Source of the DNA: a virus
Taxonomy: Duplodnaviria > Heunggongvirae > Uroviricota > Caudoviricetes
DNA length: 40,609 bases
IMG/VR virus record: IMGVR_UViG_2778261163_000009
Strand: one strand, 5' to 3'
Made by a program: the position numbers and the translations under genes. The notes beneath the pieces are model-generated. The model made no database searches, was not told where the DNA came from, and worked only from the letters and a program-made list of their open reading frames with translations. Of the stretch, positions 6,762 through 38,907 are shown one piece after another; within the stretch, counting starts at the first letter, position 1, and each line of letters starts with the position of its first letter.

Positions 6762-6815
6762 TTTGCTGTCCTGTAAATTGGGTTCTGGCGCGGTATCCCG
6801 CGCCGTTCAGATAGA

Positions 6816-7331: not shown

Positions 7332-7340
7332 GTTGTCCCC

Positions 7341-8513: not shown

Positions 8514-8589
8514 AGCGGCGAACCTCCTGATTGGATTAGGCTTCGCCCTATGTTGAAGTGATTGTGCCTGACAAACAGCTAAGCGCAGT

Positions 8590-8607
8590 TGTGTCGTTAT
8601 TCACACA
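8590..8607. promoter_or_regulatory. Ogr-type activator site (TGT-N12-ACA) of the late promoter upstream of FI
   Basis: TGTGTCGTTATTCACACA lies about 75 bp upstream of the FI start. Confidence 0.6.
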
Positions 8608-8655
8608 AAATGACGGTATTTGCCTACTTGCAGGGATAATCAAAATAATGCTGAT

Positions 8656-9225: not shown

Positions 9226-9249
9226 TATCCCCCTGAATAAAAACCGGGG

Positions 9250-9771: not shown

Positions 9772-10379
9772 TGGATAACGCCGTATTAAATAGCGAGCTT
9801 ATTGCCACGAAGGCGGGGAATATTACAGTCTATAACTATGATGGTAAAACTCGGGAATATATTTCTACTTCAAATGAATATCTTGCCATTGGTGTCGGTA
9901 TCCCTGCATATTCCTGTCTGGATGAACCTGGTATACATAAGGCGGGTTATGCTATCTGCCGTTCGATGGATTTAAACTCATGGGAATATGTGCCAGACCA
10001 TCGCGGTGAAATCGTCTATAACACCGAAACGGGAGACGCCAAAGAAATCACAGCTCCGGGTGATTATCCTGAAAATACAACCACTATCGCCCCGTTAACG
10101 CCATTCGATAAATGGGATGGTAAGAAATGGGTGACCGATACTGAGGCACATCATAGCGCCGCAGTAGACGCGGCAGAAGCACAGCGTCAGTCACTGATTG
10201 ATACTGCAATGGCTTCCATCAGTCTGATTCAACTGAAATTGCAGGCCGGGCGGAAGCTGACGCAGGCAGAAACCACCCGACTTAACGCTGTGCTGGATTA
10301 CATTGACGCGGTGACGGCAACAGATACCAGCACCGCGCCGGATGTTATCTGGCCTGAACTGCCGGAGACTGCACAATAA
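9771..10379 (+). CDS. Tail fibre assembly chaperone for the alternative fibre tip
   Basis: 202 aa, start overlaps the preceding stop; a hairpin CCCTGCTG-TGTGT-CAGCAGGG follows at 10401..10424. Confidence 0.7.
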   Translation: MDNAVLNSELIATKAGNITVYNYDGKTREYISTSNEYLAIGVGIPAYSCLDEPGIHKAGYAICRSMDLNSWEYVPDHRGEIVYNTETGDAKEITAPGDYPENTTTIAPLTPFDKWDGKKWVTDTEAHHSAAVDAAEAQRQSLIDTAMASISLIQLKLQAGRKLTQAETTRLNAVLDYIDAVTATDTSTAPDVIWPELPETAQ

Positions 10380-10515
10380 ACTCACCATCAATATATAAAT
10401 CCCCCTGCTGTGTGTCAGCAGGGCATTCTTTCCATATTAATGATGGATGGAATCTTCCTTCAGGATTAATTTCCGTTATCTCTTCTACTTTATTTTCTTC
10501 AATTCTTGCCCACAT
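10345..10515 (-). CDS. Small ORF downstream of H (possible short tail-fibre assembly fragment)
   Basis: 57 codons, GGTGAGG ribosome-binding site 6 nt before ATG; overlaps the 3' end of the opposing assembly gene by 35 nt. Confidence 0.35.
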   Translation of the reverse strand: MWARIEENKVEEITEINPEGRFHPSLIWKECPADTQQGDLYIDGEFIVQSPAVQAR

Positions 10516-10522
10516 ATGAACC

Positions 10523-12205
10523 TCACCAGTAAATATAAACTGCGCCATCTGCTCCGGCACCCGACTGACCCGTTGATGAATTAGGACATAATCCAGCACC
10601 GCCACCTCCAGGCCCAACTGCTGATACCGCTTTTCCGTTAGCTGTATCTCTGAATGAACCTGCTCCTCCGGGGCCACCACCAGAACCACCATTACCAGCT
10701 CCCGATGCGGCAGAAGCAATGGAACCTGGAGAACCTGGCCCAAGCGATGTATTAATTGTTCCCCCGACACCAACTGCGCCTAACCCTCCGGAAGGCTGGC
10801 CTCCGCTATAGCCTCCGGAAGCTGACATGTAAGTCCCGAAACTGCTCGAGCCACCATTTTTACCGTTTACAGAAATACCAGACACAGGCGCACCACCGGC
10901 ACCAACCGTAATCGAAACACTGTTTATACCAGTTAAATCTACCAGCCCCTCAGCAACTCCGCCCCCACCACCTCCTCCGCCACATGTAACGGCTGAAGCG
11001 GTTGTTGAACCTATCCCTCCTGACGCACCGCCACCAATAACTTTGACGTAACATTTTCTTCCTTTGCGCAACTCTTCAGGAACAGTCCAGCTTGTTACTC
11101 CAGCCGTTGTGAAGGCAACCAGATTTCTGAACCCAAATGAACCTTCTCCCAAACCAAGGTATGTGAGAAGACCAGCTACATCCTTTCCACTCAAATTAGT
11201 CAGCGTATTGTCCAGCGGTTGTTTACCTGCCAGCGCATTAAGCATTGTCGTGGCAAAGTTCGGATCATTCCCCAGTGCCGCCGCCAGTTCGTTCAGTGTA
11301 TCCAGTGCCGCAGGTGCAGAACCCACCATTCCTGCAATCGCCGATTTCACAAAAGCCGTAGTGGCAATCTGTGTATTATTGACCGACTGCGCCGCCGTAG
11401 GGGCTGTTGGCGTTCCGGTGAGTGCCGGACTCGACAGCGGCGCTTTCAGTGCCAGCGCATTGTTAATGGTGGTACTGAATTTCGGATCATTGTTAATGGC
11501 TACGGCTATTTCTTTCAGCGTGTCCAGCGTGGCTGGCGCACCATTAATAAGAGCCGTCAGTGCCGCCTGAACAAATGCGGTGGTCGCAAGCTGCGTGGTA
11601 TTATTCCCCGCCGCTGGCGTTGGCGCTTTGGGGGTTCCGGTAAACGTTGGACTTTCTTTGGGTGCATACTGTGAATGCGGGTCCGGCGCGGCAAGATGTT
11701 TTGCCATCAGGTCATCCACGTACACCTTCAGCTCCAGAGCCTTGTCATCCACATACTTGCGGGTTGCCAGCACTACAGCAGGGTCGATTTTCAGGGTGAT
11801 ATTGTCCGTGCTGCTGGTAATCAGCACCATGCGCACGGTCTGGGTACGCCCGCTGCCTTCAGCCAGTTGCGGCTTATAGCTTTCCGGGCAGTTGCCCACG
11901 GCAATCAATGTCCCGGACTCATCAAACAGGCCCACTTCACGTATCCACCAACCGCCCTCGTTTTCAGGGATCACCTGTTCGGCAATAATCTGGCTGCTGT
12001 TCTGCGGGTCGATATAGAGCATATTCAGCGCAGCCCGGCGTTTCTCATTTACCAATGCTGTCTGCTTTGCGTCCGGCGTTGGCAATGTTCCGCCGCCATC
12101 GCCGACCGCCATATGGGTAATTTTTAAAGGCACACCGAGCGCGGCGGCGCTGGCAAGTTTCGCCGCGCCAATATCCGTCAGCAGGGTATAAAATTTTGTG
12201 CTCAT
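10523..12205 (-). CDS. H: Tail fibre protein H (constant N-terminus plus invertible glycine-rich C-terminal tip)
   Basis: 560 aa, P2 gpH-like N-terminus; crossover site encodes LTYLGLGEG about residue 345; C-terminal 200 aa is Gly-rich. Confidence 0.85.
   Translation of the reverse strand: MSTKFYTLLTDIGAAKLASAAALGVPLKITHMAVGDGGGTLPTPDAKQTALVNEKRRAALNMLYIDPQNSSQIIAEQVIPENEGGWWIREVGLFDESGTLIAVGNCPESYKPQLAEGSGRTQTVRMVLITSSTDNITLKIDPAVVLATRKYVDDKALELKVYVDDLMAKHLAAPDPHSQYAPKESPTFTGTPKAPTPAAGNNTTQLATTAFVQAALTALINGAPATLDTLKEIAVAINNDPKFSTTINNALALKAPLSSPALTGTPTAPTAAQSVNNTQIATTAFVKSAIAGMVGSAPAALDTLNELAAALGNDPNFATTMLNALAGKQPLDNTLTNLSGKDVAGLLTYLGLGEGSFGFRNLVAFTTAGVTSWTVPEELRKGRKCYVKVIGGGASGGIGSTTASAVTCGGGGGGGGVAEGLVDLTGINSVSITVGAGGAPVSGISVNGKNGGSSSFGTYMSASGGYSGGQPSGGLGAVGVGGTINTSLGPGSPGSIASAASGAGNGGSGGGPGGAGSFRDTANGKAVSAVGPGGGGAGLCPNSSTGQSGAGADGAVYIYW
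11144..11169. repeat. Invertase crossover site (hix/gix-like 26 bp) inside H, right end of invertible segment
   Basis: TTCTCCCAAACC AA GGTATGTGAGAA; left half-site TTCTCCCAAACC is the reverse complement of the right half-site of 9278..9303; resembles hixL TTCTTGAAAACCAAGGTTTTTGATAA. Confidence 0.7.
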
Positions 12206-12807
12206 GGATTCACTCTCATTGTGTCAATAACATGGACCGCCCCGCCTTCATGCGCGGTGCCACCGGAAATAATTGTTTCGTTGATATACGGATAGATCGT
12301 GATTTCTTCGCCAAGATAGCTGGCGGCTCCCACCCAATGCGGGCCGCTGGTCTGCAGATTGATGGACATGCCGATCATGTGACGGCTACATGGTTTGGCA
12401 TCGCTTATCAGTCGCTCAAGTTCCAGATAGGTATCTTCAGTGATGCCCTGGTCCTGCACGCCGATATCCAGGCGAAACGTGCCCGGTGCCTCTCCGGTCT
12501 GCCACCACTCAATAATGCGGATCAGAAAGCCGAACGGCTCCACCACCCGCCGCACGGCACTGGTGGTCCCTTTATGCTGATGAATATAAAAAGCATCCTT
12601 CACCACCTGGCGCTTGACGCTTTCTGTCCAGCCCTCGTCCCAGCGATCCACAGAGAACGCCCAGGCGAGATAAGGCAGGAAACTGACCGGACAGGTTGCC
12701 GGATTCCACAAGTCACGAAGCGGCACCTGCAGATCAGAAATCCCGCTGCAGGTTTGCGCCAGTCGGCGCTCCAGTGGTGTTGAACCCGGTGGCAGCAGAC
12801 TATTCAT
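12202..12807 (-). CDS. I: Baseplate protein I
   Basis: 201 aa, P2 gpI-like, overlaps the H start. Confidence 0.85.
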   Translation of the reverse strand: MNSLLPPGSTPLERRLAQTCSGISDLQVPLRDLWNPATCPVSFLPYLAWAFSVDRWDEGWTESVKRQVVKDAFYIHQHKGTTSAVRRVVEPFGFLIRIIEWWQTGEAPGTFRLDIGVQDQGITEDTYLELERLISDAKPCSRHMIGMSINLQTSGPHWVGAASYLGEEITIYPYINETIISGGTAHEGGAVHVIDTMRVNP

Positions 12808-20647: not shown

Positions 20648-22414
20648 ATGAACACCACACTGACACCCGCAGATCTCGATCCCCGTCGGCAAGCCATGCT
20701 GCTGTACTTTCAGGGATACCGCGTAGCCCGCATTGCTGAAATGCTGGGCGAGAAAGTTGCAACCGTTCACAGCTGGAAAAAACGCGACAAGTGGGGTGAC
20801 TATGGGCCGCTGGATCAGATGCAGCTCACCACCGCCGCACGTTACTGCCAGCTCATTATGAAGGAGCACAAAGAAGGGAAAGATTTCAAAGAAATTGATC
20901 TGCTGGCGCGCCAGTCGGAGCGCCACGCGCGGATCGGCAAGTTTAACAATGGCGGCAACGAAGCCGATTTAAACCCTAACGTCGCCAACCGCAACAAAGG
21001 CCCGCGCCGTCAGCCTGAAAAGAATGTTTTCACCGATGAACAGATTGAGAAGCTGGAAGAAATCTTCCATTCCTCCATGTTCAACTACCAGCGTCACTGG
21101 TGGGAAGCCGGAAAAACCAACCGCATCCGCAACCTGCTGAAGTCACGCCAGATCGGCGCAACCTTCTATTTTGCCCGTGAAGCCCTGATTGACGCCCTGC
21201 TAACCGGACGTAACCAGATTTTCCTTTCTGCCAGTAAGGCACAGGCGCACGTCTTTAAGCAGTACATCATCGACTTCGCCAAAGAAGTGGAGGTGGAGCT
21301 GAAAGGCGATCCGATGGTGCTTCCCAACGGGGCCACACTGTATTTCCTCGGCACCAATGCCCGCACTGCCCAGAGTTACCACGGTAACCTGTATCTGGAT
21401 GAATATTTCTGGATACCGAAATTCCAGGAGCTGCGCAAAGTGGCATCCGGTATGGCTATTCACAAAAAATGGCGACAAACCTATTTTTCCACGCCATCCA
21501 GCCTGACACACAGTGCTTATCCGTTCTGGTCCGGTGCGCTGTTCAACCGTGGGCGCAACAAAGCCGATAAGGTGGACATCGACCTGTCCCACAACAATCT
21601 GGCCCCCGGCCTGCTGTGCGCAGACGGGCAATACCGCCAGATAGTCACCGTGGAAGATGCGGTGCGCGGCGGATGTAACCTGTTCGATCTCGACCAGTTG
21701 CGCATGGAGTACAGCCCGGACGAATACCAGAACCTGCTGATGTGCGAGTTCGTGGACGATCTCGCGTCCGTGTTCCCGCTCAGCGAACTGCAGGCGTGCA
21801 TGGTGGACAGCTGGGAAGTCTGGACCGACTTTCATGCACTAGCCCTGCGCCCGTTTGGCTGGCGCGAAGTGTGGATCGGTTATGACCCGGCAAAAGGTAC
21901 GCAGAACGGCGACAGTGCCGGATGCGTGGTGGTGGCTCCGCCAGCCGTGCCGGGTGGTAAGTTCCGCATTCTTGAGCGTCACCAGTGGCGCGGGATGGAC
22001 TTCCGCGCCCAGGCTGACGCCATCAAAAAACTGACCGAACAGTATAACGTGACCTATATCGGTATCGACTCGACCGGCGTCGGTCACGGGGTTTACGAGA
22101 ACGTGAAAGCGTTTTTTCCTGCCGTCAGGGAGTTTGTCTATAACCCCAACGTTAAAAACGCCCTGGTACTCAAGGCCTACGACATTATCAGCCACCGCCG
22201 TCTGGAGTTTGACGCCGGGCACACCGACATTGCGCAGTCATTTATGGCAATCCGTCGCGCTACCACTGCCAGTGGCAACCGCCCGACCTATGAAGCCAGC
22301 CGCAGCGAAGAAGCCAGCCATGCCGATCTGGCCTGGGCAACAATGCACGCACTGTTTAACGAACCGCTGCAGGGCGAGTCCGCCAATACCAGCAATATTG
22401 TGGAGATTTTTTGA
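20648..22414 (+). CDS. P: Terminase large (ATPase) subunit P
   Basis: 588 aa, P2 gpP-like. Confidence 0.9.
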   Translation: MNTTLTPADLDPRRQAMLLYFQGYRVARIAEMLGEKVATVHSWKKRDKWGDYGPLDQMQLTTAARYCQLIMKEHKEGKDFKEIDLLARQSERHARIGKFNNGGNEADLNPNVANRNKGPRRQPEKNVFTDEQIEKLEEIFHSSMFNYQRHWWEAGKTNRIRNLLKSRQIGATFYFAREALIDALLTGRNQIFLSASKAQAHVFKQYIIDFAKEVEVELKGDPMVLPNGATLYFLGTNARTAQSYHGNLYLDEYFWIPKFQELRKVASGMAIHKKWRQTYFSTPSSLTHSAYPFWSGALFNRGRNKADKVDIDLSHNNLAPGLLCADGQYRQIVTVEDAVRGGCNLFDLDQLRMEYSPDEYQNLLMCEFVDDLASVFPLSELQACMVDSWEVWTDFHALALRPFGWREVWIGYDPAKGTQNGDSAGCVVVAPPAVPGGKFRILERHQWRGMDFRAQADAIKKLTEQYNVTYIGIDSTGVGHGVYENVKAFFPAVREFVYNPNVKNALVLKAYDIISHRRLEFDAGHTDIAQSFMAIRRATTASGNRPTYEASRSEEASHADLAWATMHALFNEPLQGESANTSNIVEIF

Positions 22415-23448
22415 TGGGAAAGAGTAAGAAGAACCGCGCTGCGTCGACGAAACAGATCCAGCATAAAGGCCAGACTTCAGCCGAAGCATTCAGCTTCGGT
22501 GATCCCGTTCCTGTTCTGGACCGCCGCGAACTGCTGGACTATGTGGAATGCGTACAGATGGATCGTTGGTATGAGCCGCCTGTGAGTTTCGACGGACTGG
22601 CGCGAACCTTCCGCGCCGCCGTGCATCACAGCTCACCGATTGCAGTGAAGTGCAACATTCTAACCAGCACCTACATCCCTCACCCGCTGCTCAGCCAGCA
22701 GGCTTTTTCGCGTTTTGTACAGGACTATCTGGTTTTTGGTAACGCCTACCTGGAGAAACGCACGAACCGCTTCGGTGAAGTTATCGCCCTTGAGCCTGCA
22801 CTGGCAAAATACACCCGACGCGGGTTAGACCTGGATACCTACTGGTTTGTGCAATACGGCATGACTACGCAGCCGTATCAGTTCACGAAAGGCAACATTT
22901 TTCATCTGATGGAACCGGACATCAACCAGGAGATCTACGGCCTGCCCGGTTATCTTTCTGCCATTCCGTCAGCTCTGCTCAACGAGTCCGCCACGCTGTT
23001 CCGCCGCAAGTATTACATTAACGGCAGTCATGCAGGCTTCATCATGTACATGACCGATGCAGCGCAGAACCAAGAGGATGTGAACAACCTCCGCAATGCG
23101 ATGAAAAGCGCCAAAGGTCCTGGTAACTTCCGTAACCTGTTTATGTACTCGCCTAACGGTAAAAAGGACGGGCTTCAGATTATCCCGTTGTCAGAAGTGG
23201 CGGCGAAGGATGAGTTCCTGAATATCAAGAACGTGAGCCGGGACGACATGATGGCGGCGCATCGTGTGCCGCCACAAATGATGGGGATAATGCCTAATAA
23301 TGTCGGGGGGTTTGGGGATGTGGAGAAGGCCAGTCGCGTATTTGTACGTAATGAATTAACGCCCTTGCAAAAAAGGCTACAAGAGCTGAACGACTGGCTG
23401 GGCGAAGAAGTGATTAAATTTACGCCCTATATTCTTTCAGAAGAATAA
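22411..23448 (+). CDS. Q: Portal protein Q
   Basis: 345 aa, P2 gpQ-like; start overlaps the P stop. Confidence 0.9.
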   Translation: MMGKSKKNRAASTKQIQHKGQTSAEAFSFGDPVPVLDRRELLDYVECVQMDRWYEPPVSFDGLARTFRAAVHHSSPIAVKCNILTSTYIPHPLLSQQAFSRFVQDYLVFGNAYLEKRTNRFGEVIALEPALAKYTRRGLDLDTYWFVQYGMTTQPYQFTKGNIFHLMEPDINQEIYGLPGYLSAIPSALLNESATLFRRKYYINGSHAGFIMYMTDAAQNQEDVNNLRNAMKSAKGPGNFRNLFMYSPNGKKDGLQIIPLSEVAAKDEFLNIKNVSRDDMMAAHRVPPQMMGIMPNNVGGFGDVEKASRVFVRNELTPLQKRLQELNDWLGEEVIKFTPYILSEE

Positions 23449-23456
23449 TTCCGAAC

Positions 23457-24155
23457 TTATTTGTTTCTTCTTTGTTCACGCCTTGTCTTGGCTTCGATAA
23501 GGCGTTGAGGTTCAGTGTAAAGCCGTTCTAAAAAAAGATAGGTAAAATCTTCAAGATCCTCAGCAGCAGCTTTATCCAAAATACCTTCATGCGCTCCATC
23601 ATTTCCGTCATCTTTAACGCATTCAGCTAGTTCCCTTAAAGCTTCAGGCAGTAGATGATTATCAAATAACCACTCCATTCTTAACCCTAGGCTTCTCCTT
23701 ATTTTTTGCGCAGGCCCTTGCTCCCCATCAGGAAGAAGTCCTTTTGTGGCATAATCAAGGCAAAGCCTAAACATGGTTGCTGCTGCATTATAACAACCTA
23801 TAGCCAAACATTTCGCCCCTTCCTCATATGCACTATTGATATGCTCAGGTAAGAACTCTGGTGGCTCCTCTACTGCTAAGTCTGCCGGTGATATAGGTCT
23901 AACAACCTCTGCAACTTCCTTTAAGCCGAATATTCCACTTTCCCAATTATAGTCATCTAAAGTTTTATTTTTCGTTAAAGGTCTGCAAAGAAAAATTGTC
24001 GTTTTATGACACTCTCGGCAAACACAATAGACCTCGTACTCGTATGTTTTACCCCCGCCCAATGCATTGTAAACCCTAGTGCAATTCAGCCCATTAACAT
24101 CAAACGCTATTTTTTGTGATCCACATCGTGGACAGTCATCCACTAACATAACCAT
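23457..24155 (-). CDS. Hypothetical zinc-ribbon protein (cargo between Q and cos)
   Basis: 232 aa, GGGAGGAG ribosome-binding site; N-terminal CPRCG...CVCRECH cysteine cluster; C-terminal acidic/His region (DDGNDGAHEG); AT-rich; no P2 counterpart at this position. Confidence 0.6.
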   Translation of the reverse strand: MVMLVDDCPRCGSQKIAFDVNGLNCTRVYNALGGGKTYEYEVYCVCRECHKTTIFLCRPLTKNKTLDDYNWESGIFGLKEVAEVVRPISPADLAVEEPPEFLPEHINSAYEEGAKCLAIGCYNAAATMFRLCLDYATKGLLPDGEQGPAQKIRRSLGLRMEWLFDNHLLPEALRELAECVKDDGNDGAHEGILDKAAAEDLEDFTYLFLERLYTEPQRLIEAKTRREQRRNK

Positions 24156-24265
24156 GTCAATTACTCCTCCCTATGAAAAAAATGAGTTGAAAAATTGAAT
24201 ATTCACGACTTAAAAAGCTAGCCTATTTAACACCATAATTTCATTAATTCAACCATGAGCGCGCG

Positions 24266-24284
24266 CTCGTATCCCCGCCACGCC
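24266..24284. other. cos site (19-nt cohesive end) of the prophage
   Basis: Reverse complement GGCGTGGCGGGGATACGAG resembles the P2/186 cohesive end (GGCG(A/T)GGCGGGGAAAGCA-) and lies where cos is expected next to Q. Confidence 0.6.
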
Positions 24285-24324
24285 TGCCCGCTTTATGTAG
24301 TGGTTTTCATGCGCCTGCATGACA

Positions 24325-24353
24325 TAAGCAAAAGCCCGCCACTCCTGGCGGGC
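24325..24353 (-). terminator. Rho-independent terminator after the 203-aa cargo gene
   Basis: GCCCGCCA-CTCC-TGGCGGGC stem followed by TTTTGCTT on the minus strand. Confidence 0.6.
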
Positions 24354-24444
24354 CTCAGCTAAAACGATCCTCAAACGATCATGCGGATTCATGCGGCATA
24401 GACATGCACAATCTCCAAAGCGGGCATCGAGACTTTTTGGAAAC

Positions 24445-25056
24445 CTACGTAACCACAGTTAATGTGTGCATCCTGTTTCGAATTGCATCACACGTCTCAT
24501 CAAAAAGCTTGGTGATGGTTGTACGGTTCAACTCCGCCTCTTTCCAATAATTTTGCCCGTCAAATTCTGGATCGCTATGCTGAAACGATATTGACTCTGA
24601 AAGGCATTCCTTCCGGAAACGGTCCAAGATTATATAAACCTCTGGTGAGATGAACGGTTTGTTAGATTCAACACTTGTAACAAAAGTGTTAAATGCTTCA
24701 AAAAAAACTTTCAATCTTCTAAATTTTCTCTCTTCAAATGGTTCGTTGGGGTCAACATGATCCAGCGCAGGCCTCAGCTTAAGCACGCTTTCTCTGGTTT
24801 CAAACATCGAATTCCAAATGAGACTATATGCTGATAACTCCTTATCAAAATACGCTTTCGTTACATAAACAGAATTGTCTAACTTAGCCTTTATTCTTTC
24901 ATTAGTTGCACTCAGTTGTGATTGAAATTCAGCAATATCTTTGTTTAGCCGCGACTTATATCTTTCTAAATAAACTTTCCCGATCCAAACAAATATGCCA
25001 GATGCAACAAAAGACACCCCACCCAACGAAGCCAGAACTTTAAAGACTAAATCCAT
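24445..25056 (-). CDS. Hypothetical membrane-anchored protein (cargo between cos and the SOS module)
   Basis: 203 aa; AGGTGGGGG ribosome-binding site; TATAAT-like -10 box about 30 bp upstream; N-terminal transmembrane helix (LVFKVLASLGGVSFVASGIFVWI); AT-rich. Confidence 0.6.
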   Translation of the reverse strand: MDLVFKVLASLGGVSFVASGIFVWIGKVYLERYKSRLNKDIAEFQSQLSATNERIKAKLDNSVYVTKAYFDKELSAYSLIWNSMFETRESVLKLRPALDHVDPNEPFEERKFRRLKVFFEAFNTFVTSVESNKPFISPEVYIILDRFRKECLSESISFQHSDPEFDGQNYWKEAELNRTTITKLFDETCDAIRNRMHTLTVVT

Positions 25057-25104
25057 TGCGCCCCCACCTGCAAAAATAGTATTCCATTATAAGCTAATAC
25101 ATTT

Positions 25105-25365
25105 TTAATCAAACAGGAGATAATTCGCGTCAACCTCATCACTTCTCTGCTCTACCCTAGTGACTTCCATCAAAAACCCCAGGCCGTCATATAGCGAAAC
25201 GGGGAATTCCAGCTCAAGCCAGAAGCAGTCTTCATAGATGCGGCCCAACCAAAAACCTCCGCCACACTCCTTTGGGCGTTGAAAGAAGACCCAATCGCCA
25301 AGGGTAAACCGTTCCAGCACCTGGCCCCGATAAATAATCTGGTGATTACTGTCTTTTTTATCCAT
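25105..25365 (-). CDS. Hypothetical small protein (cargo)
   Basis: The ORF track starts at a TTG (25416); ATG at 25365 (MDKKDSNHQIIY...) with a GAGG ribosome-binding site is more plausible, giving 86 aa; no family recognised. Confidence 0.45.
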   Translation of the reverse strand: MDKKDSNHQIIYRGQVLERFTLGDWVFFQRPKECGGGFWLGRIYEDCFWLELEFPVSLYDGLGFLMEVTRVEQRSDEVDANYLLFD

Positions 25366-25438
25366 GGCTAACGCCTCGCTACTCTCGTTGTTCAACCTTG
25401 CTGACGTCAGATTCAAGTTCTTACATCAGGAACGTTCC

Positions 25439-25672
25439 TTAGTGCAGCCAGCTGTCGTCTTCCCAAACCTGTTGCATAATTTCCATCACCCGCTTTTTGT
25501 CTTCATCAAGCTTTAAGCCACTCAGCTCAACGCCGTTTGCCGACCCTTTACGGATGCGGATAGCGGTCTTTGGATAGATGGGTTGCAGGTTGCGGTAAAG
25601 CTCGGACTCCAGAGCGTCCAGGGTAGACTGGCTAATCTTCTGCTCTTTATCGATCATTATTTCAATGCGCAT
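25439..25672 (-). CDS. DinI-like protein (resembles the C-terminal part of the 186 Tum antirepressor)
   Basis: From MRIEIMIDK...; pattern MRIE(V/I)...LxxELxRxxxxxxP...EDKxRxxEIxQxxWExxxW matches E. coli DinI; GAGGTG ribosome-binding site. Confidence 0.7.
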   Translation of the reverse strand: MRIEIMIDKEQKISQSTLDALESELYRNLQPIYPKTAIRIRKGSANGVELSGLKLDEDKKRVMEIMQQVWEDDSWLH

Positions 25673-25682
25673 AAAAGTCACC

Positions 25683-25871
25683 TCAGCTGATGACATCCAT
25701 TGAGCTGTTGTATTCGTGGGTTCTGATTTTTGCCATGAGTTCATCTGTCAGTTCAGAAACCCACTGCAAAGCCAGCCCCTTCTCTTCATCACTACACTCA
25801 CTAGCCGCTACAAGCTTAAGAAAAAAATCAATGCGCTGGAGCTTCAAAGACTCCAAAAAATAGTCCTGCAT
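25683..25871 (-). CDS. Small ORF immediately upstream of the DinI-like gene
   Basis: 62 aa from MQDYFLESL with a GGAGG ribosome-binding site 5 nt upstream; stop lies 10 nt before the DinI-like ATG; the longer track ORF would span the LexA box. Confidence 0.5.
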   Translation of the reverse strand: MQDYFLESLKLQRIDFFLKLVAASECSDEEKGLALQWVSELTDELMAKIRTHEYNSSMDVIS

Positions 25872-25912
25872 CTTTCCTCCTATGACACCACAAGCAATAC
25901 TGTATACATAAC

Positions 25913-25932
25913 CACTGTTTATATTTACAGTA
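25913..25932. promoter_or_regulatory. LexA (SOS) box at the promoter of the small-ORF / DinI-like operon
   Basis: CACTGTTTATATTTACAGTA fits CTGT-N8-ACAG; a half-site CTGT lies 15 bp upstream (25900..25903). Confidence 0.7.
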
Positions 25933-26024
25933 TATAATAATCTTACTGATGTAAAACGTTTTTTTACGTTCATCAGCCTGATATGCCTGGTATTATTAAG
26001 AGCACGAATTGTTAACCCGCGTAA

Positions 26025-28439
26025 TTAATACAGGTTTCGCCACTTATCATCTTCCTGCAAACGCTGGTTCCGATAGAAGATACGCAGGCCTGCTCCTGAC
26101 GGAATACTGCCGCCGCGAAGGAGTAAATCGACCTCTTTCTCGCTGCCATTAAATCCTCTGGACTTCAGTTCATAGACGAGCTGCTGTCGCTGATGGTCTG
26201 TAATTCGCTGTTTGTAGTCTTTACGCCGTTTCGGTTTCACCAGGCGTAACCTTGCAGCCAGTTCCCGGCGCTCTTTTTTGCTCATACTGTGCAGGTAACC
26301 GTGCAACTCCTTGTCATCCATGCGGGTAATGTCCGTCCTGGTATCCCCATCAGCTGATTTGTCTTTCCCTTGTTGGTTCAAATTTTCAGCAAGGGGACAG
26401 TTATTGCCACGAGTCCAAGGGGCGCAAGCGCCCTGGTCGGCTGCCGCCTCCTGAACATCAACGGCCTTACGAACCATTTTCCACTTCACGGCATGAGTGC
26501 AGATCTTGCCCTCTGCAATAGGTGACCAGATGCCATAAATACGAATGCCGTGATCGCCATAGGCGGTCGGCTCTTCGTTGATTTCATAAGCGGTTCTGAT
26601 GAGGTGATATTTGCGGGGAACCAGTACGCCGCCCTGCTTCATGATGTAGGTGGCAAAACAACCAGCATCAGCAGCAGCCAGGATGGCATCAAGGCGTGGG
26701 TTATCCAGTACCGGCGCACCTGCTTTTTTGTCCCCCTGTTGCCTTGCCGCCTGACCAGCCAGCAATCGCAGTTCACGGTAAGCCTGACGCCCCGGAATGC
26801 CAAAGAAGCGGAATTGCTGAACACGATGCAGAGACGCCCAGGCATTAACGTATTCAGCATTATCACGCAGGGATTTCCCCGTTTCCTTGCTGATCTCGCC
26901 AGCCAGACCACGCCCGTCAATGTTCTTACTGATGTATTTCGCGATGTAGCTTGTTGGCGTTCCTTTGCGCGGGTTAATCAACTCAGACTTAAAGCGCGGC
27001 CCAGTGTTATTGCCCAGCTCCTCGCGGTCTTCACGGATGGCAAACTTACGCAGTAATGCAGTGATGGCACGGCGGTCTTTTTTGCGCATGAAACACAACA
27101 GGTGCCAGTGAACTGTGCCGTCATGATGCGGCTCAGCCACCCGCACGCCATACCAGCGCAACCCGGCTTTGTGCATCGCCTTACGAAATGCAGCAAACAT
27201 GCCGACCAGATAATCGCTGCTTTGTCTTACCGTCGCGTTTGTCCAGGTCGGGTTTGGTCTGCCGTTATTGAGCGTGGAATGGAAACGTGACGGACAGGTG
27301 ATGGTGTAGAAAACGGCGCAGTCACCGCGCATTTCCGCGATAAGCTCCAGACCTTTAACACAGGCCATCATCTCATTGCGGCGATGCGCCGGGTTGCTGC
27401 TGCTGGCGTTTACCACATCCTCCATGTCCAGCGTGTCGCCGTCTTCGTTCACCAGTTCATGAGAACGGAAAAACTCCAGCGACTTACGGCGCTGCTCACG
27501 TTTATGCATCACGGCTTCATAGCTGACATAGGGAGATGCTTTTTTGCTGACCAGGCAGACAGCACGCAACTGCTCTTCCCGCCATTCGCAACGCATCTTC
27601 CATAATTTCCGATACCACCAGTCGGCGCACAACATACGCGCCAGCGAACCCGGAATGAGTTCATAGGGCACGGGTTTACGGCGGTTTCTTTTCCGACGGA
27701 GTTGCTCAAACGCAGGAGGGATTACATCCAGACGCAGGGTTTCCGCTGCCACCTTTTCCCATGTCTTGCGGATTTCTTCTGGCTTAACGTCATCGGTGGC
27801 ATACAAATCACCACAAGCTGCATCAAGGCACATGCTCATATGCGCGGCAACAAGGGTAGACAGGCGCTTCACCTGATCCTGACTCATTTCAGGCAGGATC
27901 AGCAGGCCGTCCAGCCCTTCATGGCTTGCCATAAAGCGAAAAGAAGTGGATAGCTGACTCTCGCGTACATGCTCCAGTCGTTCCAGACATGGCTTAATCG
28001 TCTCACGCAAATAGCGGGAATAAGCCTTTGGCCTGCCCAGGCTGCTGAAGTATTCAATACGTTGCATCAGCGGCTTGCTGATATGGGAAGGCTGGGCGTT
28101 GACGTCCGCCAGAATGACCATATCCGGATTAAAACGCTGCTGCTCATGCGCCAGCTTTGCCCGACTAATGAGCTTATCCTGCTCGATTTCGCGCTGGACA
28201 GGATCACGGGATTCATTAAAGAAATAACGCTCCCAGACCTGATCACTCAGCGCCTCACGGCGCAGCTGTTCCTGCTCGTTATCGGCAGCGTACAGAGTGA
28301 TCAGGTTTGAAAGCGCAGAAACCGGCGCAACTTCCGCCGGGTCCAGATAAGGGTTAATGGCCTTTTTCGGGCTGCTCCATGAGAATGCTGCTGCGACCTC
28401 GTTAAAGCCGCTGCAGTTGTTCATATCAGCATGGCTCAT
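26025..28439 (-). CDS. A: Replication initiation protein A (rolling-circle nickase)
   Basis: 804 aa, P2/186 gpA-like. Confidence 0.85.
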
Positions 28440-33194: not shown

Positions 33195-34952
33195 CTATTT
33201 CATCAAGTAATCCAATTCATCCTTCATAGGTATAACTTGCTCATAAAGTCTATGGTAGGATTTTCCAATTGCCCCCCTAAATTGAATAAGTTTAGGGGAA
33301 AAGCTACCGATATTAATAATATGTTCTTGCGCTATACCAGGATATGGATCGATAAAAATAATCTCTGTCATACCTAACTGATAAGCTTTTTTAGCACAAA
33401 GTTCACAAGGGCTAGCTGTAGTATATAGTTTCCCTCCATTAATACCGACCCCACCATATTTGGCCAATTGCAAAAAAGCATTCTCCTCTGCGTGCAATGC
33501 ACGGGTATGCACTTGATTCCCTTTCTTTTCATCATCAAGGCTGTTGTGAATATCTTTAAAACAATATGGCAAATTAAGTCCTTTAAAAACAGTAGAACTT
33601 GAATCACTCGCCCTTATTTTTATTAAATTTTCTTTAACTTTACTCCTAAATTTTGTATTACTTCGTTCGTACAGGCTATATGTTCCCTCATCAAAATCAT
33701 GCAATAACCCATCAAATGACCTCATAGAACAAGGAACTTGACCTTTTGCTACATCGTTCCAACCAACTGACTTGATAGAGTTATCATTATCTGTCACAAC
33801 CGCCCCTACTTGCCTAGATATACATCCAGAATTTAGTTTTACAGTATATGCAACTTGCATAACCCTTTCCATGGCGGTAGGAGATATTAATCCAGGGTGT
33901 TGCATTAATGATACATACCACGCAATTTGTGCTTTGAGAAAGTTATTATTATCAAATTCTTTTTTAGGGTTAAAAAAATGTATATCTGAAATTTCAATGC
34001 ATTTTTTTACATTAGGATTAGTAAGATGATTATACTCGCCATCTCCTTTACCAGATTCTTCATCATTAATTTTTTTTATCTGTTCCTCTGAGAACTTATG
34101 TAATTTCTTTAAATATCTGGTTCGATGTTCATCTGGTGCATTTATAGAAACCAGATGGAATGCAGCATATCTATCTTTGAAGAATTTAGCTTCATACGGG
34201 TTACGTATCGCATCAATGACTATATACGCTTTATTATTCTTTACTTTTCTAATTATTTTAATAACACGATTAATTGTTTCAGGTAAATGAAAAACAGCCT
34301 TTGGAATAAAGTCTTGATTTTCATAATCTACATCAACCTTCCCTATTCTTCTAATTGACTTTCCTGCTGACTGATATAGCTCAATATATAAACCTGGCTC
34401 TAGTTCATTTAATTCCCTTTTAAAATCCCGTGTAAATTTTCGAGTAAGAGTTAATATCCTAATAAAGGTATCTTTCCCCCTGCCTTTAAAGTCAATCTCA
34501 TCATCATGATTAAGAAGATTTTTTATCACCTTAAGATATTTTATCTTCAACAAACTTTTAGCGAACACACCATTAACAACCAGTTTCTTAGCTGCCTTAA
34601 AGGAAATCGAATTTTCTTTTTTATCGGGGATTTTACTTGCAGAAAACTGAATGAATTTAGCTAAGGCCGATGGAGATAAAAGGAGCAAATATATTGAAAT
34701 GAGATCACTGACCTTTATCGAATAGAAGTTCTTCCAATGAGTCTCTGCAAAATTTTTTACTATTTCATAACGCCGCAAATCCAATCCTTTATAATACTCA
34801 GCCAAGACGTTACTATCTGGAAAAGATATTTCTTTTTGTTCTAAAATATTTGCTGCAGTAGTACATCCTGAGCCAGTTCTCCCAGTTAAACCAATAAGAA
34901 TAAATTGACTATTTTCTAAAAAAAGCTCACTAATAAATTTGTGTTCTCTCAT
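33195..34952 (-). CDS. P-loop NTPase/kinase-like plus zinc-dependent cytidine/deoxycytidylate deaminase fusion (AvcD / dCTP-deaminase-like defence protein)
   Basis: 585 aa; N-terminal Walker-A-like ILIGLTGRTGSGCTT; C-terminal deaminase signature HTRALHAEENA ... ASPCELCAKK (H-A-E and P-C-x-x-C zinc ligands); AT-rich; sits between int and attR. Confidence 0.6.
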   Translation of the reverse strand: MREHKFISELFLENSQFILIGLTGRTGSGCTTAANILEQKEISFPDSNVLAEYYKGLDLRRYEIVKNFAETHWKNFYSIKVSDLISIYLLLLSPSALAKFIQFSASKIPDKKENSISFKAAKKLVVNGVFAKSLLKIKYLKVIKNLLNHDDEIDFKGRGKDTFIRILTLTRKFTRDFKRELNELEPGLYIELYQSAGKSIRRIGKVDVDYENQDFIPKAVFHLPETINRVIKIIRKVKNNKAYIVIDAIRNPYEAKFFKDRYAAFHLVSINAPDEHRTRYLKKLHKFSEEQIKKINDEESGKGDGEYNHLTNPNVKKCIEISDIHFFNPKKEFDNNNFLKAQIAWYVSLMQHPGLISPTAMERVMQVAYTVKLNSGCISRQVGAVVTDNDNSIKSVGWNDVAKGQVPCSMRSFDGLLHDFDEGTYSLYERSNTKFRSKVKENLIKIRASDSSSTVFKGLNLPYCFKDIHNSLDDEKKGNQVHTRALHAEENAFLQLAKYGGVGINGGKLYTTASPCELCAKKAYQLGMTEIIFIDPYPGIAQEHIINIGSFSPKLIQFRGAIGKSYHRLYEQVIPMKDELDYLMK

Positions 34953-35287: not shown

Positions 35288-35384
35288 ACGTCTATTGTCG
35301 TCCAGTGAGAATTGCTGAGAACTACGAGTTATGGCACCCTGAATGGGACCCACTAAGAAGGGTCCAAAAACCGAGGGTCCCAAA

Positions 35385-36614
35385 ATGGCAAAAATCGCTA
35401 AGAAGCTCACTGACACTGAAATCAAAAGCACCAAGCCAGCCGATAAAGAAATCAACTTGTTTGACGGTGATGGTCTGATTCTACGAATCGCTCCTTTGGC
35501 GAAAGGAGGCAAGAAAAATTGGTATTTCAGGTATGCAGTACCAGTGAGCAAGAAAAGAACCAAAATGAGCCTTGGGACATATCCTCACCTTACCCTTGCA
35601 AGAGCCAGAGCCTTACGTGATGAATATCTCTCCTTTCTGGCAAATGGTGTTGATCCCCAAATCCATAACAACGATAAGGCGAAGGCATTAAAGAGTGCTA
35701 CTGAGCACACTCTCCAAGCCGTAGCGCGGAAATGGTTAGATGAGAAGGTAAAGACATCAGGTATCTCACAAGACCATGCAGCAGACATCTGGCGCAGCTT
35801 AGAGAGAAATGTCTTTCCCGGTCTGGGTAATGTCCCTATCAATGAGATCCGACCTAAGCTCTTAAAACAACACCTTGATCCTATTGAGCAACGAGGCGTA
35901 TTGGAAACTCTACGCCGTATCATTTCACGTCTGAATGAAATCTTCCGGTGGGCAGCTACTGAAGAACTTATTGAGTTCAACCCGGCTGACAACCTTGGTC
36001 AAAGATTCAGTAAACCAAAAAAGCAAAATATGCCTGCCCTTCCCCCAAGCGAATTGCCAAGGTTTATGGAATCTTTGACGAATGCGTCAATCCGGTTGGA
36101 AACACGTATGCTAATTGAATGGCAATTGTTGACATGGGTTCGTCCGGGTGAAGCCGTTCGCGCAAGGTGGTCTGATATTGATACAACCAACAGCATTTGG
36201 AACATTCCTGCTGATTTCATGAAAATGAAAAAGCTTCACAAAGTTCCTTTGAGTAAAGAAGCTTTGCGCATCCTTGAATTAATGAAATCAATAAGTGGGC
36301 ATAGAGAATGGGTTTTCCCCAGCATAAAAGCGCCTCTTAATCATATGCATGAACAAACAGCCAACGCAGCTATCATCCGAATGGGGTTCGGAGGCGAGCT
36401 TGTAGCTCACGGTATGCGTTCTATTGCACGAACAGCGGCAGAGGAGTCTGGTAAATTCAGAGCTGAAGTTCTTGAGGCAGCGCTTGCCCACTCGAAAAAA
36501 GATGAAATTATCGCAGCATACAATCGTGCAGAATATCTGATAGAGCGACAGAGTTTGATGCAATGGTGGAGTGATTACGTTCAAGCTCAAAGATCAAATG
36601 CTCTGGTAGCCTAA
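35385..36614 (+). CDS. P4-family tyrosine integrase (IntA/CP4-57-like)
   Basis: From MAKIAKKLTDTEIKSTKP...DGDGL.LRI... which resembles E. coli IntA; C-terminal catalytic region with HGMRS and AYNRAEY; the ORF track starts 14 codons earlier. Confidence 0.8.
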   Translation: MAKIAKKLTDTEIKSTKPADKEINLFDGDGLILRIAPLAKGGKKNWYFRYAVPVSKKRTKMSLGTYPHLTLARARALRDEYLSFLANGVDPQIHNNDKAKALKSATEHTLQAVARKWLDEKVKTSGISQDHAADIWRSLERNVFPGLGNVPINEIRPKLLKQHLDPIEQRGVLETLRRIISRLNEIFRWAATEELIEFNPADNLGQRFSKPKKQNMPALPPSELPRFMESLTNASIRLETRMLIEWQLLTWVRPGEAVRARWSDIDTTNSIWNIPADFMKMKKLHKVPLSKEALRILELMKSISGHREWVFPSIKAPLNHMHEQTANAAIIRMGFGGELVAHGMRSIARTAAEESGKFRAEVLEAALAHSKKDEIIAAYNRAEYLIERQSLMQWWSDYVQAQRSNALVA

Positions 36615-36652
36615 GTATCAGAATAGCTAATATAATCCTGAAGGTAAAGAAA

Positions 36653-37069
36653 ATGGAAACCCTATTCAAAGTTTTTGAAAAATTTAGTTCCAGACCACTT
36701 TTTTTTATTTTTTTCGGACTCTCACTTTGTGAATTTTTTCAGAAACAATCTGTTCTGATGAATCCATCAGCAGATAACATCGCGAAATTATTCGCAGCCA
36801 TGATATTAGTTGTTTTTTTTACTTGGGGATTTGAATGGCTAATCTTCAAGTTCAATGTAAACCTTGAACCTCATGATCAAGGCGATATTGGACCAACAAT
36901 TGGAACGGCTACTTTAGCTGTATACTTAGTTTATGCCTTTCACTTTCTCAGTGAAAATCCTGAAGCATTAAATTTAAAGTTATTAACTAACTCTGGCTTT
37001 ATATACAGCACAACTCTATTATTATTCTCATTAGAATGCATGAAGCTTAGAAGACTTAAACAAAAATAA
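36653..37069 (+). CDS. Hypothetical small multi-pass membrane protein
   Basis: 138 aa with three to four hydrophobic helices; 39 bp after int on the same strand; AT-rich. Confidence 0.5.
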   Translation: METLFKVFEKFSSRPLFFIFFGLSLCEFFQKQSVLMNPSADNIAKLFAAMILVVFFTWGFEWLIFKFNVNLEPHDQGDIGPTIGTATLAVYLVYAFHFLSENPEALNLKLLTNSGFIYSTTLLLFSLECMKLRRLKQK

Positions 37070-37140
37070 ACAACATCATTGTGATGATAAATATAAAATA
37101 GGCATGGCGAAAAAAAATCACCACGCCTAAAATATAATAA

Positions 37141-38907
37141 TTATGGTAGCATCATTGATACATAATCCACACCAATCCTTGAGCTATACTGAGACGCTAT
37201 AGCCTGATATCTTTCTGCATAACCAGTTCTCAGTTGAGATTTAAGTTTGAGTCGGACAGGAACATTTTGCACGTTGCCATCCATATTACTTAAAAACACG
37301 GCAGAAATAATATTTTTTTCTTCGCCATCAACTGTTGTTCCATGATTCAACACCACCATATAATCAACAACAGGAAGCGTTTTATCCCCTTCGAAAATAG
37401 AGAGATATTTTCTTTGATTTTTATGCATTACATATATATATTTCGAATGTTCAGCAAATGGCAATGCTTTACTCTGACTGGCGTTAAAAAGCTCCAGAAC
37501 TTTAATGAGCCTGTGCGGACTTAATCTTACATGGTGAGGGTCGTTACCCTGAGTAGGAACCAAATCACATGCCGCAGATACACATAAATACCATTTGTTC
37601 GACTCTGTATCAAAGAAAATAGTGCCAGTAGAAATATGACCATCTTCAAAATTCTTTGAAGACAAATTCATATTTAAAGCATGATACATTTCGTGATAAG
37701 TATCATTATTTGATGGCAGATCCATTTTTGAAGAGCAATATTGGAGCAATGCAGCAACTCCGCTGTTAGCGTATTCATTTGAATAGCTATCAAAAACACT
37801 TTTGATAAATTCATCCAGCGTATTATTATTTTTAAGTCTTTGATAAAGCTCTTCTGATAAATTACCAAATACAAAGTCAATATTTCTACATCTAATATCA
37901 GGCGAGTCTGATTTTAATATCTCATTTAACCACGCAGCTTGACCGTAATGATCGTTAGCCAAATGATTTACAAAAGATAAAGCCTCAGCTTCGATTGCAT
38001 TCTGAATTTCAGATTTTATTAACTGATAATAAGATGGTTTCCATTCAATGAGAGAATCATTGAGAGTTTGCCAAATCCTATCTCCATCGTTTTCATGATC
38101 ATCTTGAACCTTATGAAATAGGGAGACAAAGATATTACCACATTGAATCCATTTTACTCCGCTTTCATCACCCCGAATGACATTGCCAGATGTGTTGCTA
38201 GAAATAATTGCATTTCTAGACACAGCATATTCTGCAATCATTTTTGCAATGAAGTTTTTATCCTTTTGATCCTCCAACACAGCATCATCATGTATTAATC
38301 TTTTAATTCTTCTACAAGGCTTACTGTCTTTAATATAGGCTATTGTTTCATCTCTTGTGAGAGCTTTATTACCATTATCATTTAAGTTCGGTAATACAAC
38401 GTCTTCCCAATAACTTTGGACATCTTCATTATCGTAGTCAATGATCAAGCTGTTGATATCCAGAGCACCTTTGAGAGTCGATGATATCTGCATCCAAACC
38501 GTTTCTAAATTCTCTCTAGTATATATTACAATCATATTTAAATGATCGGAGTCTTTCAAATCTTGTAATAGTTTAAGTGTTTTATCAGGTGCATTATTAT
38601 CAAGATGATAATCTACAATAATAAGATCTGATTTTCTAATCCGATCCACATCGAAATTAACAGAACCATTGTCAACATCACAAATCATATTTTTAGATTG
38701 AAAAAAGCTCTCAAGAGTAGCGGCTCGTTTAGATGAGTCAATTTTGTTGTAGTCTAAATCAACTTCGTTATTCAACGCCCTGATTGATTCAGAATACGTC
38801 AGAAAATCGTCATCAATCATGACAACGGAACGAATTGCATTTTCGCAGAAAGTTTTCTGGACAAGAGAATTATAATTTGCCACTGTCATATTAGAACTCC
38901 ACTCCAT
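37141..38907 (-). CDS. Response-regulator receiver domain protein with a large uncharacterised C-terminal output domain
   Basis: 588 aa; N-terminal receiver-like motifs VVMIDDD (acidic pocket), DLIIVDYHL (phospho-acceptor Asp), MIVIYT (Thr); about 430 aa of unassigned C-terminal sequence; start overlaps the upstream kinase gene by 17 nt. Confidence 0.55.
   Translation of the reverse strand: MEWSSNMTVANYNSLVQKTFCENAIRSVVMIDDDFLTYSESIRALNNEVDLDYNKIDSSKRAATLESFFQSKNMICDVDNGSVNFDVDRIRKSDLIIVDYHLDNNAPDKTLKLLQDLKDSDHLNMIVIYTRENLETVWMQISSTLKGALDINSLIIDYDNEDVQSYWEDVVLPNLNDNGNKALTRDETIAYIKDSKPCRRIKRLIHDDAVLEDQKDKNFIAKMIAEYAVSRNAIISSNTSGNVIRGDESGVKWIQCGNIFVSLFHKVQDDHENDGDRIWQTLNDSLIEWKPSYYQLIKSEIQNAIEAEALSFVNHLANDHYGQAAWLNEILKSDSPDIRCRNIDFVFGNLSEELYQRLKNNNTLDEFIKSVFDSYSNEYANSGVAALLQYCSSKMDLPSNNDTYHEMYHALNMNLSSKNFEDGHISTGTIFFDTESNKWYLCVSAACDLVPTQGNDPHHVRLSPHRLIKVLELFNASQSKALPFAEHSKYIYVMHKNQRKYLSIFEGDKTLPVVDYMVVLNHGTTVDGEEKNIISAVFLSNMDGNVQNVPVRLKLKSQLRTGYAERYQAIASQYSSRIGVDYVSMMLP

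Follow-up and report, generated by a model that had tools for sequence, protein, structure and literature searches.

The DNA analysed here, IMG/VR virus record IMGVR_UViG_2778261163_000009 (Caudoviricetes), is a stretch of 40,609 nt, hereafter the window, and contains a P2-like prophage. Next to the cos site of this prophage, a gene encoding a 203-amino-acid (aa) protein was found, and this gene is an independent cargo gene of the prophage (moron). The initial annotation had joined it with a small acidic protein gene just upstream and proposed that the two form an exclusion or abortive-infection module. It was revealed that the two genes are independent units and form no module, because expression, distribution and decay each separate the 203-aa gene from the 86-aa gene. 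The architecture and autonomy of the 203-aa gene can be regarded as highly probable. Exclusion of other phages by its product is plausible and is put forward tentatively.

The protein has a prior record. In Table S5B of Rousset et al. 2022, it is listed alone as 'System #39' (no Pfam domain, one transmembrane segment, 103 occurrences), with a sequence that is the same as that of the window protein apart from a few substitutions. In Table S5A of the same study, the gene series 62 aa, DinI, 86 aa, 203 aa and DUF4145 appears exactly as here, with RefSeq accessions as in E. coli CEA212U, to which positions 24400–25440 of the window are 99.9% identical. The System #39 sequence is missing from the tables of cloned systems in Rousset et al. 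2022, and it seems that it was not cloned for the anti-phage assay. System #39 is thus a catalogue entry with no assigned function, and CARTA_47, its counterpart in E. coli LF82, was reported for expression only (PMC9928086). The 203-aa protein was therefore already known as a hotspot candidate (Rousset et al. 2022) and as a moron expressed in the lysogen (Misson et al. 2023). The autonomy of its gene and the unlinking from the 86-aa gene, the place of the 86-aa gene in an SOS operon, the predicted topology and the size of the family are new.

Independence of the 203-aa and 86-aa genes

Positions 24317–26100 of the window showed 97.8% identity to Escherichia phage Cartapus, a member of the genus Elveevirus that resides as prophage 4 in adherent-invasive E. 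coli LF82 (PMC9928086). The Cartapus orthologs are located at the same position and are 97% (203-aa protein) and 93% (86-aa protein, CARTA_46) identical at the protein level. The ortholog of the 203-aa protein, LF82_789 or CARTA_47, was listed as a moron by Misson et al. 2023 (PMC9928086), and its expression in the lysogen grown in LB was 7-fold over the prophage background. The RNA-seq values for this prophage are given in Table 1.

Table 1. RNA-seq log2 values of LF82 prophage genes (PMC9928086): LB, stationary phase; B1 and B6, medium without macrophages; MB1 and MB6, 1 h and 6 h in macrophages
Gene	LB	B1	B6	MB1	MB6
CARTA_47 (203 aa)	5.4–5.6	7.1–7.3	8.5–8.6	9.0	10.5
CARTA_46 (86 aa)	3.1–3.3	3.3–3.6	2.6–2.8	4.9–5.2	7.5–7.7
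DinI	2.9–3.1	4.4	3.6–3.8	7.9	9.2
62-aa gene	4.2–4.6	5.5	4.1–4.7	9.8–10.0	10.9–11.0

The structural genes remain at the floor value of 2.32 in the LF82 lysogen (PMC9928086). The 86-aa ortholog was at background in LB and rose only inside macrophages, in parallel with DinI and the 62-aa gene, the latter being induced most strongly there. Since the 203-aa ortholog reached a log2 value of 8.6 in B6, versus 2.7 for the gene just upstream, it must have a promoter of its own. Co-expression of the two genes from one promoter was not observed in LF82, where the 86-aa gene stayed at background while the 203-aa gene was expressed. Absence of expression in the lysogen, which the initial annotation had named as a finding that would speak against a defence module, was not observed either, and CARTA_47 was transcribed in the lysogen.

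A scan of IMG/VR revealed 417 stretches encoding an 86-aa homolog versus 22 encoding a 203-aa homolog. Loci were compared for the best 80 of these 417 stretches, nearly all of them P2-like; the 203-aa gene was present in 16 and missing from 64. The 86-aa family was also found in P22-like Salmonella phages (in the ea region), in the SSU5 phage-plasmid, in the early region of a Serratia phage and in Klebsiella Dagavirus (after DinI), and none of these loci contained the 203-aa gene. Among the 52 matching E. coli genomes, 11 hold only the 203-aa part. A 48%-identical homolog of the 203-aa protein was found in a satellite-like element with integrase and AlpA genes (loci L004 and L056) and a 75%-identical homolog in an Enterobacter cloacae island near smpB (locus L010). 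No 86-aa homolog accompanied the distant 203-aa homologs at the loci examined or was present in L004/L056.

The 86-aa gene was also found in a state of decay. The E. cloacae island retains no more than its final 100 nt or so, together with the promoter elements, and an intact 203-aa gene follows. In the P2-like prophages of Enterobacter, the DNA from the 86-aa gene to cos is approximately 84% identical to that of the window, DinI has been lost, and the 86-aa reading frame has become a pseudogene, having lost its ATG and acquired a +1 frameshift (one-base insertion) and a TCG-to-TAG stop (L005, positions 5685–5960; also L050 and L053). The 203-aa gene is intact at the same loci (84% identical, dN/dS 0.11 versus the window gene) and is under purifying selection in these prophages. 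The homology of the Enterobacter loci with the window ends a few bases from cos, at window positions 24255–24260. Because the promoter and the 203-aa gene persist in the island and at the Enterobacter loci while the 86-aa gene decays, the mobile unit consists of the promoter, the 203-aa gene and the terminator.

The proposed module would combine the 86-aa and 203-aa proteins, for example, as a sensor or antitoxin and a membrane effector. The two genes are indeed co-directional neighbours, 48 bp apart, 20 of the 21 P2-like IMG/VR loci with the 203-aa gene have homologous DNA of the 86-aa gene immediately before it, and the arrangement recurs in 41 of the 52 E. coli genomes and in the above-mentioned Table S5A. 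However, this adjacency is explained by insertion of the 203-aa cassette behind the SOS operon, whose last gene, the 86-aa gene, holds the promoter of the cassette in its 3' part. The genes are under different regulation in LF82, a pseudogene stands beside a conserved 203-aa gene, and the 203-aa gene occurs alone in the satellite-like element, in the island and at all of the distant homolog loci examined. The 86-aa gene is about 20 times more common in viral contigs, and the P22-like, SSU5-like and Serratia phages have no partner for it. The module is thus largely refuted and has to be considered very improbable.

Transcription signals and composition of the 203-aa gene

Both open reading frames (ORFs) described in the initial annotation were recovered on the minus strand, namely 24445–25056 (203 aa) and 25105–25416 (103 aa, with a TTG start). 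Upstream of the 203-aa gene, a promoter-like site was read that consists of a −35 element TTGATT (25112–25107), which overlaps the stop codon of the 86-aa gene, a suboptimal spacer of 15 nt and a perfect −10 element TATAAT (25091–25086). A strict consensus promoter scan did not report this TTGATT–TATAAT site because of the 15-nt spacer. The promoter elements are kept in Cartapus and in the Enterobacter prophage L005, and the −10 element is TATACT in the E. cloacae island. This conservation and the independent transcription of the 97%-identical ortholog support the promoter that had been assigned to this gene. For its terminator, a strong hairpin, GAGGCCCGCCA-GGAG-UGGCGGGCUUU, followed by a U-rich tail was found (RNA fold −26.4 kcal/mol, z = −3.85).

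The two genes had both been called AT-rich. This holds for the 203-aa gene, with a G+C content of 38.6%, but not for the 86-aa gene (47.9%), whose composition is near those of DinI (49.1%) and of the P2-like prophage overall (52.6%). The 203-aa protein matched phrog_26391 over its full length (E 2e-141), a PHROG with the function listed as unknown. Homologs were found in 52 of 5426 complete E. coli genomes, and the gene is absent from most related P2-like phages, including close relatives with the same DinI–cos backbone. The gene thus has the promoter, the terminator, the deviant G+C content and the variable presence of a moron. It is inserted downstream of the SOS operon, on the side that faces cos, brings a terminator of its own and has its promoter embedded in the final codons of the 86-aa gene. 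As seen for the LF82 ortholog, it is transcribed in the lysogen, where the structural genes stay silent.

Predicted architecture and family of the 203-aa protein

The 203-aa protein contains a single N-terminal hydrophobic helix (residues 7–25, Kyte–Doolittle 2.0) and no second one, in agreement with the membrane anchor expected from the initial annotation. Modeling using AlphaFold2 led to a model with a pLDDT of 85, in which a long N-terminal helix, comprising the membrane segment and a stalk to approximately residue 60, leads into a bundle of four helices that is capped by a small two-strand sheet. Family-wide statistics were obtained for 70 diverse members. One N-terminal transmembrane helix was predicted in 67 of them, the N-terminal tail is short and acidic, and the mean number of K and R residues is 0.37 on the N-terminal flank of the helix versus 3.5 on the C-terminal flank. 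The positive-inside charge bias corresponds to the N-out/C-in orientation in 69 of 70 members. The protein is thus predicted to be tethered to the inner membrane with N-out/C-in topology, and the basic C-terminal flank would place the four-helix bundle in the cytoplasm. A C151–C189 disulfide was considered as a sign of a periplasmic domain and rejected, as the two cysteines do not co-vary (21/70 and 55/70).

A GG motif surrounded by small residues is kept in the membrane helix of 49–53 of the 70 members. Residues E73 and P134 are invariant across the family, and F70, W81, L94-R95-P96, F135, E154, I192-R193 and R195 are nearly so; the bundle residues conserved family-wide are E73, R95-P96, P134-F135, E154 and R193/R195. 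In longer family members, only the length of the stalk differs and no domain fusions were found.

A profile search against 1.84 billion representative proteins resulted in 1181 clusters at E ≤ 1e-3 and 526 at E ≤ 1e-10; these are clusters at the 50% identity level, and 1181 is a lower bound on the family size. Nearly all of the 150 matches listed are approximately 190–230 aa long, some being shorter (apparently partial) and a few longer. The family is spread over Proteobacteria, Nitrospira, Chloroflexota and Balneolota. A profile built from a 12-sequence alignment of the family led to seven genome loci. PDB sequence searches with profiles found nothing, and structure comparison with BFVD gave no significant match for the 203-aa protein.

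Sub-threshold matches to Val_tRNA-synt_C, Apolipoprotein and Rootletin, which appeared in scans of the window proteins and of 70 and 23 homologs of the 203-aa and 86-aa proteins, respectively, were rejected as coiled-coil noise. In several RefSeq E. coli genomes, for example, NZ_AP022215.1 and NZ_CP019355.1, PGAP calls the 203-aa protein 'valyl-tRNA synthetase'. This name is a misannotation, and its source is probably the sub-threshold coiled-coil match to Val_tRNA-synt_C (E 0.0096; 16.6 bits versus the cutoff of 25.9). The analysis thus corrects these RefSeq entries.

Position in the P2 hotspot and possible function

The gene order of the window is gpA, 62 aa, DinI, 86 aa, 203 aa, cos, DUF4145 and portal. 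Because the order in P2 is A, orf91, tin, old and cosR, the placement of the 203-aa and 86-aa genes in the slot equivalent to old/tin was correct, and the match of the cos sequence to P2 cosR (14/19 positions) agrees with it. The description of this slot as a recognised anti-phage hotspot was also confirmed, as the cos-proximal gpA–gpQ interval is a published P2 diversity hotspot (PMC9122126) from which old-tin and three of eight other cloned systems gave anti-phage defence (Rousset et al. 2022).

The 203-aa protein may be a lysogenic-conversion factor that works without a partner on the cytoplasmic side of the membrane. A single glycine-rich helix at the N-terminus would tether it to the inner membrane; a short acidic tail would lie outside, and a coiled-coil stalk of variable length and the conserved four-helix bundle would lie in the cytoplasm. 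Its most likely role would be exclusion of other phages through interference with their genome entry or with early steps at the membrane; another route to exclusion could be membrane-directed abortive infection via helix oligomerisation. The expression in the lysogen, the predicted membrane tether, the moron positions and the anti-phage hotspot allow us to assume anti-phage exclusion as the leading hypothesis, which is plausible though still short of an even chance. The close relatives of the protein are confined to mobile elements and found at moron positions; such positions are also occupied in unrelated temperate phages, where one homolog adjoins the CI region in Pseudomonas phage Riah and another adjoins an integrase gene at locus L028. 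Two adjacent 206-aa genes at the latter locus were considered as paralogs, and this was rejected.

A number of observations weigh against exclusion. The cargo of the P2 hotspot is partly non-defensive and includes partition systems and the cytolethal distending toxin (Rousset et al. 2022). In relatives, the truly hypervariable defence slot is on the cos–portal side, opposite the 203-aa gene. No significant match for the 203-aa protein or the 70 family members was found in Pfam or NCBIfam, and neither the 203-aa nor the 86-aa window protein matched PADLOC-DB v2.0.0 at E ≤ 1; PADLOC analysis of the 70 homologs gave scattered single matches to unrelated models (best E 1e-4). The distant chromosomal homologs have mostly housekeeping neighbours, and neither enrichment of defence genes nor a conserved partner was seen near them in a small sample of four annotated and six self-annotated neighbourhoods. 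The strong rise of the ortholog inside macrophages fits a role in host physiology equally well.

Such a role would make the 203-aa protein a lysogenic-conversion factor for envelope or membrane stress or for intracellular survival, unrelated to exclusion. The increase of approximately 30-fold from LB stationary phase to 6 h in macrophages, the increase in B1 and B6, the breadth of the family across phyla, often in ordinary chromosomal neighbourhoods, and the non-defence genes among the hotspot cargo are consistent with it. However, neither domains nor neighbours suggest any particular physiological pathway, and the restriction of close relatives to mobile elements at classic moron positions argues against it. 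In addition, other AT-rich cargo is induced alike, including the DUF4145 gene (its Cartapus counterpart CARTA_1 is transcribed in the lysogen and rises from log2 4.7 to 9.6; PMC9928086), and the pattern may reflect relief of silencing. We consider a role in host physiology possible and rather doubtful. A service to the phage's own cycle, for example, by anchoring replication or packaging to the membrane near cos, by timing lysis or by controlling induction, appears improbable. The 203-aa gene does adjoin cos, downstream of the replication and SOS genes, and membrane-tethered helical proteins are used in lysis control. Nevertheless, most P2-like phages do without the gene, including close relatives with the same backbone; it is expressed in the uninduced lysogen and is also found outside phages.

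If exclusion by the 203-aa protein is true, a compact single-gene membrane system would be added to the defence catalogue, a large unannotated bacterial family would receive a function, and the DinI-to-cos side of the P2 hotspot would also hold defence cargo. A more far-reaching proposal, in which the 203-aa protein would be the first to be recognised in a large cross-phylum family of single-gene anti-phage factors that current defence databases lack and the 86-aa protein would, separately, be an undescribed counter-defence or host-takeover protein, is conceivable and on balance unlikely. The immediate value is modest, because the locus is an already catalogued candidate. Two genes that are neighbours in a hotspot need not form a module, and the unit to clone is the 203-aa gene with approximately 60 bp upstream rather than the pair.

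Comparison with known systems

Like old and tin of P2, the 203-aa gene is located in the slot between gene A (with its downstream genes) and the right cos end, and it shares with them the features of a non-essential AT-rich cargo that has its own promoter and is expressed from the prophage (PMC9122126). In contrast, transcription of old and tin starts on the cos side and proceeds towards A, and the 203-aa gene runs with A, towards cos. Old and Tin are soluble proteins and have no membrane-anchor annotation in the P2 record, whereas the 203-aa protein has a predicted anchor. Anti-phage activity has been demonstrated for old-tin, and the 203-aa gene is a candidate. A BLASTP search against a three-protein database revealed no similarity to P2 Old (best E 0.94) or to P2 Tin (253 aa; best E 1.2 for the 203-aa and 4.2 for the 86-aa protein), so with the best E of about 1 neither protein resembles Old or Tin, as had been noted initially. 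No AAA or TOPRIM Pfam domain, as in an Old-type ATPase/nuclease, was found in the two proteins.

HK97 gp15, P22 SieA and lactococcal Sie2009 are small single-gene superinfection-exclusion proteins of the cytoplasmic membrane that are expressed from prophages and encoded at moron positions. The 203-aa protein resembles this type in being small, encoded by a single prophage-expressed gene at a moron position and, by prediction, membrane-anchored. It differs in that no match to SieB or to any other Pfam family and no significant BFVD match were found and its globular domain is predicted to be cytoplasmic. The four-helix-bundle sensor domains of Tar, TorS and Adeh_2942 have 3–11% sequence identity with the 203-aa protein, and the fold is generic, as designed helical bundles score nearly as well as these three. 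Unlike chemoreceptors and histidine kinases, the 203-aa protein has no second transmembrane helix and no signalling domain, and its bundle is predicted to be cytoplasmic rather than periplasmic.

The 86-aa gene and the SOS operon

The small gene had been given as 86 to 103 aa. It encodes 86 rather than 103 aa, because the ATG at the start of 25105–25365 is preceded by a ribosome-binding site (GAGG), phrog_2100 matches the 103-aa ORF from residue 18 onward, all homologs begin with MG/MD-K-D, and PGAP and the Cartapus record annotate 86 aa. The product is acidic, as the initial annotation had it (pI 4.5; 16 D+E versus 9 K+R).

The LexA box at 25915–25930 is the sole consensus match in the window and also an inverted repeat; 0.52 such boxes are expected by chance per window, and it is the position and the expression that carry the argument, not the count. 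The 86-aa gene is the distal member of a 62-aa/DinI operon under presumed LexA control, given that it rises together with DinI and the 62-aa gene, that no terminator-like element was found between DinI and the 86-aa gene and that the LexA box lies upstream. The LexA control is deduced from the box. The interior of the macrophage is a genotoxic, SOS-inducing environment according to the authors of the expression study (PMC9928086). A weak terminator-like hairpin was observed at the 62-aa/DinI junction (25677–25694, minus strand); it fits the stepwise drop along the SOS operon in LF82 after 6 h in macrophages (10.9, 9.2 and 7.6) and may be an attenuator.

Coliphage 186 has a LexA-controlled tum operon. 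The window prophage is similar to it in the order of LexA box, small gene and DinI-like gene, in having 186-type CI, CII and Fil, and in induction under genotoxic conditions; to our knowledge, the 86-aa gene has no counterpart in phage 186.

Scans of the 86-aa protein and 23 homologs with Pfam, NCBIfam, PADLOC and PHROGs matched only phrog_2100 (function listed as unknown). One UniRef name of an 86-aa homolog (P0239), 'DUF2829 domain-containing', led to consideration of a Tad2/DUF2829 anti-Thoeris sponge, which was rejected since there was neither a Pfam DUF2829 match nor fold similarity to solved Tad2 structures. The 86-aa protein is made only upon SOS induction, as judged from the LF82 ortholog, and is an early accessory protein found widely among temperate phages of enterobacteria, without a recognisable fold. 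A role in host takeover or counter-defence is our guess.

Gene map and the cos–portal side

The window prophage belongs to the P2 family and is of the 186/Fels-2 type, with genes for the CI repressor, CII/CP76, Dam methylase, gpA, terminase and portal. The features around cos are listed in Table 2. A 47-aa ORF spanning cos (24249–24392) has no family match and was taken as spurious.

Table 2. Features of the gpA–portal interval in the window
Feature	Position	Strand	Remarks
Portal gene Q	22411–23448	+	
Gene of 232-aa zinc-ribbon and DUF4145 protein	23457–24155	-	Across cos from the 203-aa gene
cos cohesive-end sequence GGCGTGGCGGGGATACGAG	24266–24284	-	14/19 positions as in P2 cosR
Intrinsic-terminator-like hairpin with U-rich tail	24333–24361 (about)	-	Between the 203-aa gene and cos
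203-aa cargo gene (moron)	24445–25056	-	ORF; phrog_26391
Promoter-like site of the 203-aa gene	25086–25112	-	Read from the sequence
86-aa acidic protein gene	25105–25365	-	phrog_2100
DinI-family gene, 77 aa	25439–25672	-	Pfam DinI, E 4e-24; Cartapus annotation
62-aa gene, first in the SOS-controlled operon	25683–25871	-	phrog_698; Cartapus annotation
LexA box CTGT-N8-ACAG	25915–25930		Upstream of the 62-aa gene
gpA	26025–28439		Same direction as the 203-aa gene

The 232-aa protein on the other side of cos has an N-terminal zinc ribbon and a Pfam DUF4145 domain (E 4.5e-7), and it partially matched PD-T7-4, a single-gene defence system modelled in PADLOC (E 9e-7). In relatives, the cos–portal position is occupied by AIPR, retron RT, OLD-like, AAA_15 with RloB, SEFIR or Hypoth_Ymh genes.

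Other elements

Directly after the prophage integrase gene, an AT-rich gene encoding a 585-aa protein with a cytidine/dCMP deaminase domain was found (33195–34952, minus strand). It matched the PADLOC dCTP-deaminase defence model very strongly (E 2e-146) and is a known anti-phage gene, here at the integrase-att end of the prophage. A second integrase (Arm-DNA-bind_3 and Phage_integrase domains) is encoded at 35343–36614 and is followed, up to position 40609, by AT-rich DNA (29–37% G+C) encoding a 588-aa Response_reg_2 protein and an HEF_HK/HATPase_c protein of at least 572 aa; PADLOC gave no match for these two proteins. The region 35343–40609 is probably another integrated element with two-component-like cargo.

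In locus L004 (Logan ERR10548450 contig 7, positions 4071–12337), the 203-aa homolog is accompanied by an integrase, AlpA, an AAA_25 protein and a DUF4238 gene; DUF4238 is a validated defence domain (Rousset et al. 2022). The element is flanked by Phage_cap_E fragments of 84 aa and 346 aa and appears to be inserted in a phage major capsid gene, so it may be a satellite integrated into the capsid gene of a prophage. In E. coli RM10410 (locus L030, positions 3205–5732), a degraded remnant of the P2 hotspot was found in which a truncated 203-aa gene adjoins a DprA and phosphoribosyltransferase pair, an anti-phage system validated by Rousset et al. 2022.

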